Of a DNA stretch of 64,000 nt, positions 9,471 through 57,706 are shown piece after piece. Within the stretch, counting starts at the first letter, position 1. Every line of letters begins with the position of its first letter. The notes below the pieces were generated by a model. The model was not told where the DNA came from. It saw nothing but the letters and a program-made list of their open reading frames with translations, and ran no database searches. A program made the position numbers and the translations under genes. This DNA comes from Candidatus Indicimonas acetifermentans (GTDB lineage: Bacteria > Gemmatimonadota > Gemmatimonadetes > Palauibacterales > KS3-K002), in assembly GCA_947581815.1 (NCBI GenBank), contig CANPVX010000001.1, positions 31,644 through 95,643 of the forward strand. Reading direction: 5' to 3'.

Positions 9471-10805
9471 CTAATTAGCCTCCGCTGCCTGCACTGCTGA
9501 AGGCGCCTCTTCCACAGGGTCGTGCCTCAGCACGTTGCGCGTATCAACGACCGGGCGTCCGCTCGAGCGGATCATCTCGTAATCGACGGAGCTGTGGTCT
9601 GTCACGATCACGATCAGGTCAGTCGCGGCCAGAACTCCCAAATCTAGCGTGACCGAGCTTAGAGCCTGACCCTCGTGCTCAAGAGAGGGCACGAACGGAT
9701 CGTGGTAGTAGACTTCGGCCCCCTTGGATGCCAGTAGCCTGATGATGTCTAAGGCCGGTGATTCGCGCGTGTCCGCCACGTCCGGTTTGTAAGCCACCCC
9801 CAGCACCAACACGCGCGAACCCCTTACGGGCTTGCCTTCCTGGTTCAGCGCGTCGGCCGCTTTCTGCGCCACATAGGCGGGCATCTCCGCGTTGATCTCG
9901 CTCGCCAGCTCCACTAGACGCGTCTTGTAGTCGAGCGTCTTCATCTTCCACGAGAGGTAATGCGGGTCGACGGGAATGCAGTGGCCGCCCAACCCCGGAC
10001 CCGGCGTGAAACGCATGAAGCCGAAAGGCTTGGTTGCCGCCGCCTCGATGACCTCCCAGACGTCCACTCCGAGCTTGTCGCAAACAACCGCCATTTCGTT
10101 GGCGAGCGCTATGTTCACTGAGCGAAACGTGTTCTCAAGCAGCTTCACCAGCTCGGCGGCCTCCGTGCTTGAAACGGGTATCACGTTGTCGATGATCGTC
10201 GAGAAAAGAGCGACCGCAGCGCTAGCGCACGCAGGGGTCATCCCGCCAACGATCTTAGGCGTGTTGCTGATCGTCCAGTGCGGATTGCCAGGGTCGACGC
10301 GCTCGGGGCTAAAAGCCAAGAAGAAATCGTCTCCTACTCGCAGCCCACCCGCCTCGGAGAGCGCAGGTAGCAGCAGCTCACGCGTGGTCCCTGGATATGT
10401 CGTCGACTTGAGAACGACGAGCTGTCCGGGCCTCAGCGTGCGCCCGATCGAGTCGGTGACGGACATTATGTAGGAGACGTCTGGGTCGCCGGTCTTGTTC
10501 AGAGGCGTGGGCACGCAAATGCAGATGGCGTCCGCATCTCCCAACCGGTCGAAGTCATCTGTCGCCACGAGGCGACCAGTCTCGACCGCCTCTGCCAACC
10601 TATCGTTCGGCACGTCACCTACGTGCGACATACCACGCCTCACGCCCTCGATCTTTGCTCTGGCGAGCTCGAAGCCGACGACGTGAAAGCCCGCTCGAAC
10701 GAACTCGACCGCCAGCGGCAATCCCACATAACCGAGACCGACTACGCCAACTGTGGCTTCTCGGCTATCAATCTTCGAGATCAGTGACCGCTCAAGCACA
10801 GTCAA
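9471..10805 (-). CDS. UDP-N-acetyl-D-glucosamine / mannosamine 6-dehydrogenase (WbpA/WecC family nucleotide-sugar dehydrogenase)
   Basis: VGVVGLGYVGLPLAVEF NAD-binding motif and a GGHCIPVD catalytic-Cys motif; 444 aa. Confidence 0.75.
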   Translation of the reverse strand: MTVLERSLISKIDSREATVGVVGLGYVGLPLAVEFVRAGFHVVGFELARAKIEGVRRGMSHVGDVPNDRLAEAVETGRLVATDDFDRLGDADAICICVPTPLNKTGDPDVSYIMSVTDSIGRTLRPGQLVVLKSTTYPGTTRELLLPALSEAGGLRVGDDFFLAFSPERVDPGNPHWTISNTPKIVGGMTPACASAAVALFSTIIDNVIPVSSTEAAELVKLLENTFRSVNIALANEMAVVCDKLGVDVWEVIEAAATKPFGFMRFTPGPGLGGHCIPVDPHYLSWKMKTLDYKTRLVELASEINAEMPAYVAQKAADALNQEGKPVRGSRVLVLGVAYKPDVADTRESPALDIIRLLASKGAEVYYHDPFVPSLEHEGQALSSVTLDLGVLAATDLIVIVTDHSSVDYEMIRSSGRPVVDTRNVLRHDPVEEAPSAVQAAEAN

Positions 10806-11779
10806 CCTCCAAGTAACCGGGCGAGCTGCCCGGCGTAGTACGTGATGATCAGATCCGCACCGGCCCGCCGGATAGAGTGCGCCGCTTCCAGCAGCGCCTT
10901 CTCTTCGTCCAGCCAGCCGCGTTCGCCCGCCGCCCGCAGCATACTGTATTCACCGGAAACGTGGTATGCCGCGACAGGGTAACCCGTCTCCAGCTTCACC
11001 CTATAGATGATATCCAGATATGGAAGGGCGGGCTTGACCAGTAGGATGTCTGCACCCTCTTCGACATCGAGCCACACCTCGCGGATCGCTTCGTCCGAGT
11101 TGGCTGGATCCATCTGATAACCGAGCCGATCACCTGCCTCCGGAGCCGAGCCCGCCGCGTCGCGAAACGGTCCGTAGAACGCCGAGGCATACTTGGCGGC
11201 ATGGGACATAATCGCGACGCCGGATAGGTCCGCCGCGTCGAGCGCCTCCCGTACCGCCGCCACGCGGCCATCCATCATGTCGCTCGGCGCTACGATGTCC
11301 GCGCCAGCTTCCCCCTGCGATATCGCGGTTTGCGCCAGCAATTCAAGGGTCGCGTCGTTGTCGACCTCACCCGCGTCCGTGAGGATTCCACAGTGCCCGT
11401 GGTCCGTGTACTCACACAAGCAGACATCGGTGATCACCACCAGCTGCGGTTTATTCTCCTTGATCGCGCGCACCGCCTGTTGCACGATCCCGTCGCTTGC
11501 GTACGCACCTTGACCGCGGCGGTCTTTCTGCTGCGGGATCCCAAATAGGAGGACCGCCCCTACGCCCAGCGCGTGTAAGCTTGACGCCTCCTCGACGACC
11601 GCTTCCACAGAGAGACGCGAGACGCCTGGCATGGAGGCCACGGGATGGCGACCCTCTTCGTGGGTTACGAATAACGGAGCGATCAGATGCCCAGGTTCTA
11701 TCGAGGTTTCCTTGATAAGGGATCGGAGCGCCTCCGTCCTCCGCAGCCGCCGAGGTCTGTAGCTCGGAAAGCTCGGCAT
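10802..11779 (-). CDS. hemB: Porphobilinogen synthase (delta-aminolevulinate dehydratase)
   Basis: RPRRLRRTEALRSLIKET...; the Schiff-base lysine region ALPYLDIIYRVK; 325 aa. Confidence 0.9.
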   Translation of the reverse strand: MPSFPSYRPRRLRRTEALRSLIKETSIEPGHLIAPLFVTHEEGRHPVASMPGVSRLSVEAVVEEASSLHALGVGAVLLFGIPQQKDRRGQGAYASDGIVQQAVRAIKENKPQLVVITDVCLCEYTDHGHCGILTDAGEVDNDATLELLAQTAISQGEAGADIVAPSDMMDGRVAAVREALDAADLSGVAIMSHAAKYASAFYGPFRDAAGSAPEAGDRLGYQMDPANSDEAIREVWLDVEEGADILLVKPALPYLDIIYRVKLETGYPVAAYHVSGEYSMLRAAGERGWLDEEKALLEAAHSIRRAGADLIITYYAGQLARLLGG

Positions 11780-13449: not shown

Positions 13450-13641
13450 CTAGGGCGCCTTCCGAACCTTACCCGCCTTGATGCAGCGGGTGCAGACCCG
13501 CACCCGGCGCACCTCTCCCTCCTCGACTATGCGAACCCTTTGAAGGTTCGGAAGCCAGCGCCGCCTGGTGCGATTGTTCGCGTGGCTGACGTTGTTTCCG
13601 ACCCCCGGCCTCCGGCCGCATATATGGCATACTCGCGCCAT
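13450..13641 (-). CDS. rpmB: 50S ribosomal protein L28 (zinc-ribbon C4 form)
   Basis: [34 protein letters not shown]...CTRCIK. Confidence 0.95.
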
Positions 13642-13674: not shown

Positions 13675-14214
13675 CTAACGCTCTCCGGAGCCGGATCCCG
13701 AACCCGGTGTCGCTCCTTGGTCAGGGATCACGAAGTCGATGGAATCGACTAAGAAGAACGAGGTGTAACCGGATAGGCTTTCTCGGTTCTCCGGCTCGAA
13801 GAAGCCGCGTTGCGCCCAAACGTCTAGGATCGAGTCGTTCAAAGCGTATACCCAGCCGGCTATCGAGATATTGTCACCCGCTATCACTTGCAAGTTCGAC
13901 TCGAGGGCCGGTCGATCGAGGATCGCAGGGTAGCCTGGGCGCCCAGGCAAGTCGAGCGCCAGCGAAACTCGCCCCAGCGGCGTCACGACCCGCACCGGCG
14001 TCACCAAGACCCGCTGGCGCGAGTAGCGCTCAGGATCGATGGCGAAACTATCCACGTCGATCAGTGGCAGCTCTGTCGTGTCGGGGCCGAAACTGGCGAC
14101 TTCGATGGTCGACGACTGCCGATACAGCCAGAACATGAACCCGGCGATAAGAATCACGGCGACCGTCATCAGCGGCCAAGTACGCGTCGATATCTTCTCG
14201 AGCATATCGCCCAT
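13675..14214 (-). CDS. Hypothetical membrane-anchored protein (single N-terminal TM helix, about 140-aa extracytoplasmic domain, GS-rich tail)
   Basis: An N-terminal TM segment (PLMTVAVILIAGFMFWLY) and no recognisable motif. It is wedged between rplQ and rpmB with spacers of about 32 nt. Confidence 0.6.
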   Translation of the reverse strand: MGDMLEKISTRTWPLMTVAVILIAGFMFWLYRQSSTIEVASFGPDTTELPLIDVDSFAIDPERYSRQRVLVTPVRVVTPLGRVSLALDLPGRPGYPAILDRPALESNLQVIAGDNISIAGWVYALNDSILDVWAQRGFFEPENRESLSGYTSFFLVDSIDFVIPDQGATPGSGSGSGER

Positions 14215-15774: not shown

Positions 15775-16410
15775 CTATTTCGAATACAGCTCGACGATCA
15801 ACTGTTCCTGTACCGCCAGCGGTACGTCCGCGCGCGTTGGCTTCTCGACCATGCGGCCTTTGAGTTTCTTGTGATCGACCGACAGCCAGTCGAGAACCCC
15901 TTCTCCACTGCGCGCTTCCGCCGCCTCCATCACAACCGGTAACTCCCGGCTCCTCGGCTTGACCGAGACTTCGGCTCCCGGCTGGACCGTGTAGCTCGGT
16001 ATGTCCAGGACCCGCCCATCTACGAGCACGTGCCGGTGACGTACGAGCTGGCGCGCGGCCTTCCGCGACGGCGCAAAGCCCATCCGATAGATGATGTTGT
16101 CCAGCCGGGTCTCCAGCGAGACGATCAAGTTGTCTCCTGTTATTCCCGGCTCGCGTGCAGCCTGCTTGAAGACGGTTCGAAACTGCGTCTCCTGCAGTCC
16201 GTAGATCCGCCGCACCTTCTGTTTTTCGCGAAGCTGCACGGCGTACTCCGACATCCGGCGGCGCCGAGCTCGCTGCAGGCCATGCTGACCCGGAGGATAA
16301 TTGCGCCGCTCGATGGCGCACTTCTCCGTGAAGCATCTCTTGCCCTTGAGAAAGAGCTTCTGCCCCTCACGACGACACAGCCGGCAAACCGGCCCCGCAT
16401 ACCTTCCCAT
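15775..16410 (-). CDS. rpsD: 30S ribosomal protein S4
   Basis: MGRYAGPVCRLCRREGQKLFLKGKRC. Confidence 0.95.
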   Translation of the reverse strand: MGRYAGPVCRLCRREGQKLFLKGKRCFTEKCAIERRNYPPGQHGLQRARRRRMSEYAVQLREKQKVRRIYGLQETQFRTVFKQAAREPGITGDNLIVSLETRLDNIIYRMGFAPSRKAARQLVRHRHVLVDGRVLDIPSYTVQPGAEVSVKPRSRELPVVMEAAEARSGEGVLDWLSVDHKKLKGRMVEKPTRADVPLAVQEQLIVELYSK

Positions 16411-17260: not shown

Positions 17261-17377
17261 CTAACCTTGACGTTGCTTGTGCTTCGGATTCCGCTTGCAA
17301 ATCACCCGGACGACGCCCCGGCGTCGGACCAGTTTGCAATGCTCGCAAATGCGCTTAACGCTCGACCGTACCTTCAC
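17261..17377 (-). CDS. rpmJ: 50S ribosomal protein L36 (zinc-binding form); not in the ORF track, found by manual translation
   Basis: A GTG-initiated minus-strand ORF reads [38 protein letters not shown], preceded by AGGAAGAGA. Confidence 0.85.
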
Positions 17378-17718: not shown

Positions 17719-18492
17719 TCAGCTCGCCTTCGACGGCACCGCGGTGAGTACTCGTGGGCCCTTTTCGGTAACCACGACCGTATGCTCGAAGTGGGCGGAG
17801 GTCTTGCGATCCGCCGTCACCACCGTCCAGTCATCTTCGAGCATCCGTATCTCCGGCCCATCCAGGTTGAACATGGGCTCGATCGCTAGCACGAGGCCTG
17901 GGCGGAGACGCACGCCCTGGCCCGCGTGACCGATGTTGGGCACCTGCGGCTCTTCGTGCGGTTGGGTGCCGATCCCGTGGCCAACGAGCTCTCGCACGAC
18001 GCTAAAACCGGCGCCTTCGCCCACGGCCTGAATAGCGGCGCTGATATCGCCTACGTGCCCTCCCGGCTGCGCCGCCTCGACGCCGCGCATCAAGGCTTCA
18101 CGCGTCGCCTCCAACAGGCGCGCGACTTCCGGATCGACCTCGCCGACGCCCAGCGTGACGGCGCTATCCCCGTAATAACCCTCATACCCGACACCGACGT
18201 CGATGCTGATCACGTCGCCCTCCTGAAGCATGCGCTTTCTCGAGGGGATCCCATGCACGACTTCTTCGTTGATGCTCGTGCAGAGGGTGGCTGGGAAGCC
18301 ATAAAGCCCTTTGAAGGCCGGCCTCGCGCCCACGTGCCCCCGAATCAGCTCCTCGGCCCATTCATCGAGCTCGGCCGTCGTGACCCCCGGCCGTATCTGC
18401 CCTTCTACCTGATCGAGCACTTCTGCGACGATCTCGCAGGCGCGGACGATCAGCTCGATCTCGTTATCCGTCTTCAGCGTGATCAAGAGCAC
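17719..18492 (-). CDS. map: Methionine aminopeptidase type I
   Basis: Metal-binding D/D/H/E/E framework (..ISIDVGV..HGIG..) over 257 aa. Confidence 0.9.
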
Positions 18493-19133
18493 CCCACGGC
18501 GCTGAGCAGCCGTCCGTGCACTTCTTCTACCGTGCCTATTGCATCGAGCTCAAAAAGCTTCACAGAACCGTTCTTGTACCAAGCCAGTAAAGGCTCCGTG
18601 TTCTCGTGGTATACGCGAAGACGGTTACGGACCGTTTCCTGTTTGTCATCGACTCTCGCTTCCAATCGACCCCCGCAGCGATCGCAGCGATCGCTTACTT
18701 CGGAGGTTTCAGCGCGCAGGCTGAAAACAGCCCCACAATCTGGGCAAACCCTACGACGCGCCAGACGTCGGACAAGCTCCTCATCGTCAACGTCGAAGTA
18801 CACGACAGCGCTCAGCGCCCGATTCTGCTGGGCGAGGTACGCGTCGAGTGCTTCCGCTTGCGGGACGTTGCGCGGGAAGCCGTCCAGAATGAACCCCCGC
18901 TCAGCGTCGGGTGACTTCAGCGCTGCGTCGACGATGCCGAGCACGACCTCGTCTGGAACCAGCTCGCCCCGATCCATGTACCGTTTGGCCTCAACACCGA
19001 GCGGGCTGTTCTCCCGAACGGCCTCTCGCAGGATGTCGCCGGTTGCGTATTTCGGAATCTCGACACGTCCTGCCAGGAGATTCGCCTGTGTACCCTTTCC
19101 TGCGCCCGGCGGGCCCAAAAATACGAGGTTCAT
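18483..19133 (-). CDS. adk: Adenylate kinase
   Basis: MNLVFLGPPGAGKGTQA P-loop and a CxxC..CxxC lid zinc site. The true start is the internal ATG, not the track start at 19157. Confidence 0.9.
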   Translation of the reverse strand: MNLVFLGPPGAGKGTQANLLAGRVEIPKYATGDILREAVRENSPLGVEAKRYMDRGELVPDEVVLGIVDAALKSPDAERGFILDGFPRNVPQAEALDAYLAQQNRALSAVVYFDVDDEELVRRLARRRVCPDCGAVFSLRAETSEVSDRCDRCGGRLEARVDDKQETVRNRLRVYHENTEPLLAWYKNGSVKLFELDAIGTVEEVHGRLLSAVGCS

Positions 19134-19170
19134 CCACGCTGCTCCGTGAACCGACACGCCTGGAGCCTCG

Positions 19171-23061: not shown

Positions 23062-23247
23062 CTACCAGCTCGCCTTGCGCACGCCGGGGATCTCCCCGTT
23101 AAGAGCCATCTGCCGAAAGCATATACGGCAGAGCCCGAACTTGCGCAGATAGGCGCGCGCCCGCCCGCAGCGACGGCAGCGCGAGTACTGGCGTACTTTG
23201 AACTTGTTCTTCTTCTTTTGCTTCTCGATCAGAGCTTTACGTGCCAT
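23062..23247 (-). CDS. rpsN: 30S ribosomal protein S14 type Z (zinc-binding)
   Basis: 61 aa; [20 protein letters not shown]. Confidence 0.95.
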
Positions 23248-23322: not shown

Positions 23323-23883
23323 TCACACCAAAACAGGCTCCACCTCTCGGAATGGCATACCCATTTCTCTGAGGAGAGCGAGCGCTTCATCGTCCCTATC
23401 CGTCGAGGTCACTATCGTCAGATCCATCCCATGGATCTTCTGAATTCGATCGTAGTCCACTTCCGGAAAGATCACCTGTTCCTTGATGCCCACGGTGTAG
23501 TTCCCTCGGCCATCGAACGAGCGAGTCGGGAATCCACGAAAGTCGCGGATCCTCGGAACTGCAATACTGATAAAGCGATCCAGGAACTCGTACATGTACC
23601 GGCGGCGGAGCGTCACGCTGACACCCACTGGCATTCCCTCGCGCAAGGAGAAGTTCGAGATAGCCTTTCGCGCGCGGTTCACTACCGGGCGCTGGCCGGA
23701 TATCACTCCTAGAACTTCAACGATCGAGTCCAAGAGCTTCGGCTCGCGGGACGCGTCACCGACTCCCACGTTGATCACGATCTTCTCTACCCACGGCAGT
23801 CTATGTGGGTTGGCGTAGCCTAGCTCCTTGGCGAGCTTGGGCCGTACCTTGCTCTCGTAGTGCTCTTGCAGTCTCGGCTTCAT
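23323..23883 (-). CDS. rplE: 50S ribosomal protein L5
   Basis: MKPRLQEHYESKVRPKLAKELGYANPHRLP. Confidence 0.95.
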   Translation of the reverse strand: MKPRLQEHYESKVRPKLAKELGYANPHRLPWVEKIVINVGVGDASREPKLLDSIVEVLGVISGQRPVVNRARKAISNFSLREGMPVGVSVTLRRRYMYEFLDRFISIAVPRIRDFRGFPTRSFDGRGNYTVGIKEQVIFPEVDYDRIQKIHGMDLTIVTSTDRDDEALALLREMGMPFREVEPVLV

Positions 23884-23914: not shown

Positions 23915-24238
23915 TCAGCTTTCCGGCGTCGGAATCGGATTGTCGCAGCGCACGCACAGACGCTCCACCGTACCGTCGGGATCGCGTTTGATCCGAATAC
24001 GGGAACCTGTGCTGCAGTGCGGGCAGACCAGCATCACGTTCGATGCCTCGATGGGCGCCTCGAATGTGACGATTCCGCCCTCCGGGTTTTTCTGCGACGG
24101 ACGCTCGTGCTTTGTCCGCCGGTTGATTCCCTCTACGACGAGCCGGTTCCGCCTTGGAATCACGCGAAGCACACGACCCTCGCTGCCCCGGTAGTTCCCG
24201 GCTATCACTGTGACCCTATCGCCTGTTCTGATTCTCAT
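23915..24238 (-). CDS. rplX: 50S ribosomal protein L24 carrying a C-terminal CxxC...CxxC zinc-ribbon-like tail
   Basis: An N-terminal KOW domain (MRIRTGDRVTVIAGNYRGSEGRV). The C-terminus reads ...VMLVCPHCSTGSRIRIKRDPDGTVERLCVRCDNPI. Confidence 0.9.
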   Translation of the reverse strand: MRIRTGDRVTVIAGNYRGSEGRVLRVIPRRNRLVVEGINRRTKHERPSQKNPEGGIVTFEAPIEASNVMLVCPHCSTGSRIRIKRDPDGTVERLCVRCDNPIPTPES

Positions 24239-24288: not shown

Positions 24289-24657
24289 TTAAACGACCTC
24301 GGGCGCCAAGGAGACGATCTTCATGAAGCGCTTGTCCCTAAGCTCCCGGCCGACCGGTCCGAAGATTCGCGTCGCAAGGGGCTCGCCTTGATCAGTAATC
24401 AACACGGCGGCATTGTCGTCGAAGCGTATATACGAGCCGTCTCGGCGCCGCTGCTCCCTTGCGGTCCGCACGACCACCGCCTTGGTGACTTCACCTTTCT
24501 TGATCGTACTGGTCGGCAAGGCAACCTTGATCGTGACCACGATCACGTCACCGAGTCTGGCATAGCGGCGCCCGCTGCCGCCAAGCACACGTATGCAGAG
24601 TGCCTCTTTGGCGCCCGAGTTGTCGGTGACCCGCACAATGGATTCTTGCTGAATCAT
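24289..24657 (-). CDS. rplN: 50S ribosomal protein L14
   Basis: [28 protein letters not shown]. Confidence 0.95.
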
Positions 24658-30008: not shown

Positions 30009-31202
<1,194 letters not shown>

Positions 31203-31246
31203 CCTATCTCCTCGTTCCCGTCGCGGTACCGCGTACCGTGCCTAAG

Positions 31247-46883: not shown

Positions 46884-47042
46884 CTACTTCGTCTCCTTGT
46901 GCTGCGTATGCTTACTGCAGCGCCGGCAGTACTTCTTGTACTCCACCCGCTCGGGGTGTTTCTGCCGGTTCTTAGTCAATTGGTAGTTACGCGACTTACA
47001 GTCGGCGCACTCAATGGTGACCTTTACGCGGTTCGCCGCCAT
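46884..47042 (-). CDS. rpmG: 50S ribosomal protein L33 (zinc-binding form); not in the ORF track
   Basis: Manual translation gives MAANRVKVTIECADCKSRNYQLTKNRQKHPERVEYKKYCRRCSKHTQHKETK*, with the stop 3 nt before the secE start. Confidence 0.85.
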   Translation of the reverse strand: MAANRVKVTIECADCKSRNYQLTKNRQKHPERVEYKKYCRRCSKHTQHKETK

Positions 47043-47061: not shown

Positions 47062-48255
<1,194 letters not shown>

Positions 48256-48350
48256 CCTATCTCCTCCGCTGGTCGATCCCGCTTCGTTCCTGCCCGCCGG
48301 GCGCCGGACCCGCCGTGGGTAAGCGCTGGCGCAGCTCTTGGCTCAGCGAA

Positions 48351-48433
48351 TGGTGGGGGAAGGATTCGAACCTTCGTAGGCATCAGCCGGCAGATTTACA
48401 GTCTGCTCCCTTTGGCCGCTCGGGCACCCCACC
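48351..48433 (-). tRNA. tRNA-Tyr (anticodon GUA), long variable arm, CCA not encoded
   Basis: The minus strand reads GGTGGGGTGCCCGAGCGGCCAAAGGGAGCAGACTGTAAATCTGCCGGCTGATGCCTACGAAGGTTCGAATCCTTCCCCCACCA, near-identical in its arms to E. coli tRNA-Tyr. Confidence 0.9.
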
Positions 48434-48701: not shown

Positions 48702-48777
48702 TGGAGCTGACGGCGGGAGTCGAACCCGCAACCTGCTGATTACAAATCAGCCGCTCTTCCGTTTGAGCTACGTCAGC
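48702..48777 (-). tRNA. tRNA-Thr (anticodon UGU), CCA encoded
   Basis: The minus strand reads GCTGACGTAGCTCAAACGGAAGAGCGGCTGATTTGTAATCAGCAGGTTGCGGGTTCGACTCCCGCCGTCAGCTCCA, which folds as a cloverleaf. Confidence 0.9.
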
Positions 48778-52788: not shown

Positions 52789-54264
52789 CTAGGGCCGGTT
52801 CGACGCGCGGCGCGGGTCGCTGAGCACTCGATCCGCCTGGATTCGCAAGCTGTTCAACTGCTGCCGCAGTCCCTGCTCCAGTTCCTCGTACGTGAATCCT
52901 TCCGCTTTCGCCTCACCGACGAGCGCCTGAACGTAAGCGGAGCTCCAGTAGTTTTCCAAAAGCTGCCGCCTCAACTCTTCGGCAGGCGGCTCTATGGAAC
53001 TCGTGCCATTGGTGCCGCTCGAGTCCAGGTCCATGAGATCGAGAGCAGCGAGCAGCGCTTTAGGCGCCCAGAGCCCATCGGGCTGTTCCTCCACATACGT
53101 CAGATAGAGGTGCCGGGCCAGACCCAGCGACTCCAGGTCCTCCCAGGCGACTTCAGCGGCCGCCAGGTATCCGACCTCACCCCGCTCGACGAAATACTCG
53201 AGCCGGCGGATCAACTCGATCAGCTCGGCGACCGTGGCGATTCGAGTTCCGAAGTTAAGTTGGCGAGCATCGCGCAATACCGCGTACGCGTCCTCGAGGT
53301 CCGCGAGCGTGATAGCCCGTGCCAATTTCAAGTCAACCAACGCTAGGTAGGCGTCGACCGCCGTCCGCGATTGTGGGGCAATTTCCGCTGCCAGTCGATA
53401 ATCTCGTTCAGCGTCTACGATGCGTCCCACGTCCACATCGAGGTCGCCGCGCAGCTTCACGAATCTAGCAGTCATGCCCACAGACAGGCCTGCCACCTCC
53501 ACCTTCAGTAGGGCGACACGTCCCACCTCCGGATCCGCAGCGGCGACGTGCTGCACAGCTTGGTACAGCTCGTCCTCCTCGTCCCTCTCCAAGGTGAGCT
53601 TGAAGACCTGGGTCAGCTCGAACCCAGCCTCCTGGTAACGACCGGCCATCACGAGCTCGCGTGCCCTGGCGAGTCGAGGCGCGACCCACTCCCGATCGAT
53701 CGCCGACGATGCTCTGAAGTCATCATCGGCGCTGCTCAGCTGCCCTAGACCGATCCGCGCCAACCCTCGACTATAGAACAACGACGCATGGAGACGTTCA
53801 TTCCAGTCCTCCTCCAACGCCGCCGTCAGCAGTGAATCAGCCTGTGCGCTGTTCCCCAAGCGCACTTCCGCCATGCCCAGAAAGCCTGCCGCCTCGGCGC
53901 TATCGCGCGCCGAGTGCACCATCTCAAGCAGCTTCACACTTGCCTCAGCGGCTTCGGGCCACTCCTCTCGCAGCACTCGCGCATACGCGATCAGCCGCTG
54001 GGCGTCATCGGCCCAGCGGCTGTTAGGCTTGTTCTCAACCACCCGCTCCGCCTTCTCGATGCTCTCATCGAGCGTGGCGCGACCGGCCGCCTCGTTCCCG
54101 TGCTCGATCTCTCTACGCCCGCGCTCGAACAGCGCGTTCGCATTGTAAACGGAATTGAAATAGACACAGCCCGTAGCCGAAGCCGCCGCGGCTGCGACAA
54201 GGAAGATGTGGGCTTTAAGCGCCAGCCCGGGGGGTAGACCAGACCCGCTGACCATAACCTGCAA
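52789..54264 (-). CDS. TPR-repeat lipoprotein
   Basis: Signal peptide with a lipobox (..FLVAAAAASATGC) followed by many TPR-like repeats; 491 aa. Confidence 0.6.
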   Translation of the reverse strand: MQVMVSGSGLPPGLALKAHIFLVAAAAASATGCVYFNSVYNANALFERGRREIEHGNEAAGRATLDESIEKAERVVENKPNSRWADDAQRLIAYARVLREEWPEAAEASVKLLEMVHSARDSAEAAGFLGMAEVRLGNSAQADSLLTAALEEDWNERLHASLFYSRGLARIGLGQLSSADDDFRASSAIDREWVAPRLARARELVMAGRYQEAGFELTQVFKLTLERDEEDELYQAVQHVAAADPEVGRVALLKVEVAGLSVGMTARFVKLRGDLDVDVGRIVDAERDYRLAAEIAPQSRTAVDAYLALVDLKLARAITLADLEDAYAVLRDARQLNFGTRIATVAELIELIRRLEYFVERGEVGYLAAAEVAWEDLESLGLARHLYLTYVEEQPDGLWAPKALLAALDLMDLDSSGTNGTSSIEPPAEELRRQLLENYWSSAYVQALVGEAKAEGFTYEELEQGLRQQLNSLRIQADRVLSDPRRASNRP

Positions 54265-57358: not shown

Positions 57359-57706
57359 TCAATCATCTCGCAACGCGAGTCGGAGATCCTCCAAATTCAC
57401 GGGCCGCGGGAGCACGACGCGGCCGCCGTCATCCGCACCCGGCACGCGGCGCTCAGCGCCGACTTTCAATTCGATCATCATCATCGTATTGCCCGCTGCT
57501 GCCTCCTCCAGTCGAAAGCCAGCGTCCCCGATGCTCTCCGCATCGTAGACGATAGCGTCGGGTCCGAACTCCCGCAGGCGCTCGAGCGCCTCAGCCGAAC
57601 CGGCCGCCCGCACATCGTGCCCTTCGCTCTCCAGCAGTCTCGCGAGGGCATCCCGCGCGACACCTTGCCTGTCGATGATTAAGATTCGCCGGCGGGACAT
57701 GATCAC
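57359..57706 (-). CDS. Stand-alone receiver (REC) domain protein with degenerate active-site residues
   Basis: RILIIDRQGVARDAL...AIVYD...; the conserved acidic pair and Lys positions are altered (DRQ, LPRPV). Confidence 0.55.
   Translation of the reverse strand: MIMSRRRILIIDRQGVARDALARLLESEGHDVRAAGSAEALERLREFGPDAIVYDAESIGDAGFRLEEAAAGNTMMMIELKVGAERRVPGADDGGRVVLPRPVNLEDLRLALRDD

Follow-up and report, generated by a model that had tools for sequence, protein, structure and literature searches.

A four-cysteine (C+) ribosomal protein uL24 of a known isoform encoded in a Gemmatimonadota genome

Bacterial ribosomal proteins fall into C+ and C- isoforms, a dichotomy reportedly drawn by Makarova, Ponomarev and Koonin in 2001. 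For uL24, the closest known C+ case is that of Thermus thermophilus, in whose ribosomes the protein coordinates Zn (van den Elzen et al., NAR 2023, PMC10450194). The same study defined C+ uL24 by the pattern (CXXC)-(CXXC) and surveyed the C+ and C- forms across 2021 bacteria (PMC10450194). The uL24 site was found to be increasingly conserved with growth temperature and invariant only at an optimum of at least 80 °C; at low temperature it is the least conserved of the metal sites, with some outliers (PMC10450194). The treble-clef zinc-finger “L24” of PMC4999995 is the eukaryotic/archaeal eL24 rather than uL24, and is irrelevant to this comparison.

We analyzed a window of 64,000 nucleotides (the whole stretch of DNA considered here) from a Gemmatimonadota MAG. 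It contains an rplX gene at positions 23,915–24,238 of the minus strand, the strand that carries all features given below with coordinates. The gene encodes a uL24 of 107 amino acids plus a stop codon, and the whole translation is MRIRTGDRVTVIAGNYRGSEGRVLRVIPRRNRLVVEGINRRTKHERPSQKNPEGGIVTFEAPIEASNVMLVCPHCSTGSRIRIKRDPDGTVERLCVRCDNPIPTPES. With 102.1 bits, the match to the family profile TIGR01079 (rplX_bact) exceeds the cut-off of 53.7 and aligns residues 1–101 with profile positions 2–103 of 104, and Pfam recognizes a KOW domain (residues 6–36, 32 bits) followed by PF17136, ribosomal_L24 (residues 38–101, 75.9 bits). L24 chains in the PDB match the protein with a best E-value of 9e-23. The upstream neighbor is rplN (uL14; 24,289–24,657) and the downstream neighbor is rplE (uL5; 23,323–23,883); around them the ORFs follow the order L14-L24-L5-S14-S8-L6 within a long S10-spc-alpha ribosomal protein cluster. 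The identical arrangement in loci L081–L084 was labeled by Pfam as Ribosomal_L14, Ribosomal_L5, and Ribosomal_S14. Exactly the same uL24 protein is encoded in assemblies GCA_036476805.1, GCA_036447695.1, and GCA_044232185.1. An AlphaFold2 model of the protein has a mean pLDDT of 80.5 (86–89 across residues 71–100), and the top 50 Foldseek matches of this model in the PDB are all uL24 or uL24m chains, each with a probability of 1.00 and with 95–111 columns aligned. Profile score, operon position, and fold all agree that the gene is a member of the bacterial uL24 family.

We then examined the C-terminal domain of this protein, encoded at 23,918–24,040, an interval that corresponds exactly to codons 67–107. 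The C-terminal end reads ...NVMLVCPHCSTGSRIRIKRDPDGTVERLCVRCDNPIPTPES, and here lie the only four cysteines of uL24, arranged as C72-x2-C75 (CPHC; codons at 24,023–24,025 and 24,014–24,016) and C95-x2-C98 (CVRC; codons at 23,954–23,956 and 23,945–23,947). Together, C72PHC75 and C95VRC98 satisfy the (CXXC)-(CXXC) pattern by which C+ uL24 is defined (PMC10450194). Of the 120 nearest homologues (protein clusters), 119 retain all four cysteines, and conservation of these columns in alignment A2 reaches 90% or more. When the 48-residue tail was searched against the PDB, T. thermophilus L24, represented by 267 entries, ranked first with the four cysteines in register, and a phmmer alignment with chain 10px_1Y (T. 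thermophilus uL24) places all of them in the same columns as the Zn ligands. The T. thermophilus protein (PDB 4Y4Y, 7AZO, 4V8A) has CPAC-x19-CAKC where the window protein has CPHC-x19-CVRC, and the domains are equal in length. Given this register and the conservation among the nearest homologues, the four cysteines are not a product of chance. The original prediction of an L24 with a pair of CxxC motifs of the zinc-ribbon or knuckle type after the KOW domain was correct.

The structural comparison extends to the whole protein. Foldseek aligns the model with T. thermophilus uL24 over its full length (7azo_L24A, 106 columns, TM 0.70), and the C+ chains of 7azo and 4v8a both give a TM of about 0.7 at 38–39% identity. 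In the model, β-strands at residues 68–71, 81–85, and 91–95 flank both CxxC turns. The two proteins differ in that overall identity is just ~38% and in that the host here is a Gemmatimonadota MAG, probably no thermophile. The original prediction held that such a site on L24 was not known to be described as a general feature. This part does not stand, because the same motif is present in T. thermophilus L24 and the C+ and C- isoforms have been surveyed across bacteria (PMC10450194). The window protein is a standard member of an already known isoform, and its significance is accordingly small: it adds one further case to those documented.

We consider it very probable that the gene is an ordinary Gemmatimonadota rplX encoding the described metal-binding (C+) form of uL24. 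In such a protein, an N-terminal KOW barrel is followed by the usual small C-terminal β-hairpin domain, with the knuckles C72/C75 and C95/C98 placed at the turns of that domain. Both knuckles together most likely hold one structural Zn2+ as Zn(Cys)4, like T. thermophilus uL24. The metal would cross-brace a mini-domain that is too small for a real hydrophobic core, and this bracing would stabilize both the fold and its contact with the 23S rRNA near the exit tunnel. The C- relatives have the same domain, kept together in a metal-free manner. It is by analogy with Thermus that we infer Zn2+ occupancy and a stabilizing role for the site in this organism.

Rubredoxins likewise bind their metal through a pair of CxxC knuckles, and the four cysteines might instead bind another cofactor (rubredoxin-like Fe or an Fe-S cluster) or serve as a redox-sensitive switch. 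In Thermus uS4, an iron-sulfur cluster and not Zn occupies the Cys site (PMC10450194), so the Cys sites of ribosomal proteins are not always Zn sites. Ogr_Delta, Zn_ribbon_4, MJ0042_CXXC, and TraR were rejected as families of the uL24 tail, with Pfam and NCBIfam E-values of 0.004–0.2 that fall below the cut-off; weak zinc-ribbon matches of this kind reflect only the generic CxxC...CxxC spacing and are thus of no use as evidence of membership, and those from Pfam (E 0.004–0.03) cannot tell one metal from another. Against a cofactor or function other than structural Zn, uL24 is counted among the Zn-coordinating proteins (PMC10450194), the window motif is in register with the Thermus Zn site, and no sequence feature indicates Fe. 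We therefore regard this alternative as very unlikely, and structural Zn2+ as the preferred reading of the site.

The original prediction had described the cysteine-bearing segment as a tail absent from canonical L24, and had read it as possibly a lineage-specific and previously undescribed zinc-ribbon extension appended to the protein. The segment, however, adds no length. It lies inside both the PF17136 (38–101) and TIGR01079 (1–101) models, and the part beyond the family profile is confined to the final five or six residues (PTPES). Across the segment, alignments with Cys-free L24 proteins from S. aureus, from Flavobacterium, and from other Gemmatimonadota continue at the same length, with D, P, T, or S at the Cys positions. 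For S. aureus, the alignment runs without length change against the window tail ...LVCPHCSTGSRIRIKRDPDGTVERLC, and the Cys-free Gemmatimonadota tails read ...IDPTTDEPTRVRIRIDKDGTKERISVRSDNPIP. Cys-free uL24 proteins are also those of E. coli, B. subtilis, and S. aureus, which resemble the window protein in length and in the architecture of a KOW domain plus C-terminal hairpin and give a Foldseek TM of 0.64–0.68, but which carry residues such as Asp, Pro, Thr, or Ala at the Cys positions and lack the metal site. The predicted structure also matches C- as well as C+ chains over their full length, the C- chains including those of B. subtilis, S. aureus, and Listeria.

An extension restricted to one lineage also conflicts with the distribution of the motif, for which the cross-phylum picture comes from a search of cluster representatives and from cluster names. 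The C+ form of uL24 occurs in at least four phyla, Thermus included, and the motif is present in Synergistota, in Sporomusa-type Firmicutes (Negativicutes), and in many further lineages. Among the clusters with organism names (2 of the 10 checked), the C+ form is that of Synergistaceae/Thermovirgaceae and of the mesophilic Sporomusa/Methylomusa. Of the 150 representatives of 50%-identity clusters with the best scores, 88 (59%) have a strict CXXC-CXXC motif, a share inflated by the use of a C+ query. The presence of cysteines in just 29 of 80 Gemmatimonadota species, in two blocks around one C- block, could be taken to favor an extension peculiar to some of these bacteria. With the domain shared by C- relatives, the segment covered by the family models, and the motif already in the literature (PMC10450194), we find an appended lineage-specific ribbon scarcely credible and retain the reading of an ordinary C+ uL24.

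Five more of the best 150 representatives combine a widened knuckle (C-x4-C) with a normal CxxC, as in CQNRDC...CVKC and CPHC...CKNPDC. These proteins (P0127, P0139, P0172, P0206, and P0218, with knuckles such as CQNRDC, CKNPDC, and CPSSSC) still have four cysteines, and the published CXXC-CXXC rule would score them as C-.

The distribution within the phylum was assessed by a genome contig scan in which all 80 loci proved to be Gemmatimonadota; these loci, like the names on homologues, place the window in that phylum. Among 80 species representatives (loci L001–L080), uL24 is C+ in 29 and C- in 51, at equal length, and in the C- proteins all four cysteines are replaced together and not singly. 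A neighbor-joining (NJ) tree of uL24, computed after masking of the Cys columns, places the C- sequences in a single contiguous block, with the C+ Gemmatimonadota sequences in two blocks on either side of it, and Fitch parsimony requires one change. This pattern suggests a single loss or gain of the Cys set as a block, in a tree that is short (100 amino acids) and weakly rooted. A block loss in a large clade would fit the published C+/C- dichotomy and its “recurrent disruption of Zn ribbons”. That the cysteines are chance or neutral residues without a metal is hardly tenable: a large share of Gemmatimonadota does lack them at equal length, but 119 of 120 close homologues have the complete set of four, C- forms have lost them jointly, and different phyla carry them in the same alignment columns.

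The S14 site behaves differently from that of uL24 in this phylum, being C+ in 73 of the 74 Gemmatimonadota loci where it was readable. Loss at uL24 against retention at S14 fits the published view that metal sites are lost most readily from the larger ribosomal proteins. A uL24 site lost as a block in part of Gemmatimonadota while the S14 site is near-universal is of modest descriptive value. In locus L067, S14 has CTRC...CRIR, so that its second pair is short of one Cys.

Other metal-capable ribosomal proteins are encoded in the same window. These are uS14 (rpsN/rpsZ; 23,062–23,247), in the short C+ form of 61 amino acids with CRRC...CRIC and recognized by Pfam as Ribosomal_S14 for the same gene in L081–L084; bL36 (rpmJ; 17,261–17,377), in the C3H form with CEHC...C-x4-H; bL33 (rpmG; 46,884–47,042), in the C4 form with CADC...CRRC; and bL28 (rpmB; 13,450–13,641), in the C4 form with CHIC...CTRC and a Pfam match to Ribosomal_L28 (E 1.4e-23). 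The motifs of all four were read in the translations and agree with the original prediction, which had named S14 as the short Zn form and L28, L33, and L36 as C4 or C3H forms. A further protein that had escaped its list is uS4 (rpsD; 15,775–16,410), which has Pfam Ribosomal_S4 and S4 domains and whose translation has C9RLC12...C26FTEKC31, a CXXC-CXXXXC pattern that fits the published definition (PMC10450194). With uL24, six of the six metal-capable ribosomal proteins found in the window meet the C+ patterns of the published dichotomy, a count that leaves out bS18, bL31, and bL32 (none seen in the window; no dedicated family search). The broader claim that the Zn-capable ribosomal proteins of the window are in the Zn form thus agrees with the six found, all of which are Cys forms. 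The rpmG gene lies directly upstream of a 71-amino-acid ORF with a hydrophobic stretch, which we take to be in the usual position of secE.

The average number of metal-binding ribosomal proteins in mesophiles is 5 in Gemmatimonadetes, 7.3 in Acidobacteria, and 7 in Chrysiogenetes (Table S2, PMC10450194), so C+ forms of most of these proteins are not unusual for a mesophile. The organism of the window is itself probably not a thermophile. The assemblies with the exact uL24 protein belong to an accession series that includes South China Sea bins (a link read from the names alone), and the clade, judged by its MAG names alone, appears to be non-thermophilic and to live in marine sediment. Since the host is probably no thermophile, the thermostability rationale of the literature does not obviously explain why the C+ form of uL24 has been retained. 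One could suppose that this clade, with at least six of nine metal-binding ribosomal protein sites kept, is a systematic outlier to the rule that treats ribosomal metal sites as a thermometer, which we consider unlikely. If it were so, some factor other than heat, for example metal availability, anoxia or redox conditions, or a non-Zn cofactor, would account for the persistence of C+ uL24.

A switch between C+ and C- paralogues is known for L31, L33, L36, S14, and S18. Neither a Fur/Zur-family protein among the flanking genes scanned in the 64-kb window nor a second rplX, other C- ribosomal protein paralogue, or duplicate of any ribosomal protein gene among its ORFs was found, and such a switch is thus not seen here. 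For uL24, paralogue switching is not known to be an established property.

A Pfam scan of the flanks identified ordinary housekeeping genes. Some are involved in envelope and sugar metabolism (nucleotide-sugar enzymes, TPR proteins, a BamD-like lipoprotein, and an amidase) and others in heme and pyrimidine synthesis (HemB, HemD, PyrF, and PyrD); further flanking genes encode CysRS, PGI, pyruvate kinase, and a Sir2 deacetylase. Three ORFs have no Pfam match at E ≤ 1e-5: one of 179 amino acids with a hydrophobic N-terminus between rpmB and rplQ (13,675–14,214), one of 491 amino acids upstream of the amidase gene (52,789–54,264), and one of 115 amino acids (57,359–57,706).

The window also encodes two copies of tuf (EF-Tu), each of 397 amino acids, at 30,009–31,213 and 47,062–48,266. 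Their nucleotide sequences show 100% identity throughout a block of 1205 bp that comprises the whole CDS and 11 nt of the 5' leader and ends abruptly on both sides. This identity fits gene conversion between tufA and tufB, and could also reflect collapse or duplication in the MAG assembly. The second tuf copy is preceded by genes for tRNA-Tyr(GTA) (48,351–48,433) and tRNA-Thr(TGT) (48,702–48,777), a common tRNA-tufB arrangement, and rpmG follows that copy after 19 bp, with tRNA-Trp absent between them.

Motifs of metal-binding type occur in two enzymes encoded in the window. Adenylate kinase (18,483–19,157) has a four-Cys lid, CPDC...CDRC, of the metal-binding type. HemB (ALAD; 10,802–11,779; Pfam E 1.4e-142) has the Cys-rich motif DVCLCEYTDHGHCG of the Zn-dependent and not the Mg type, which makes it another Zn-using protein in the window.
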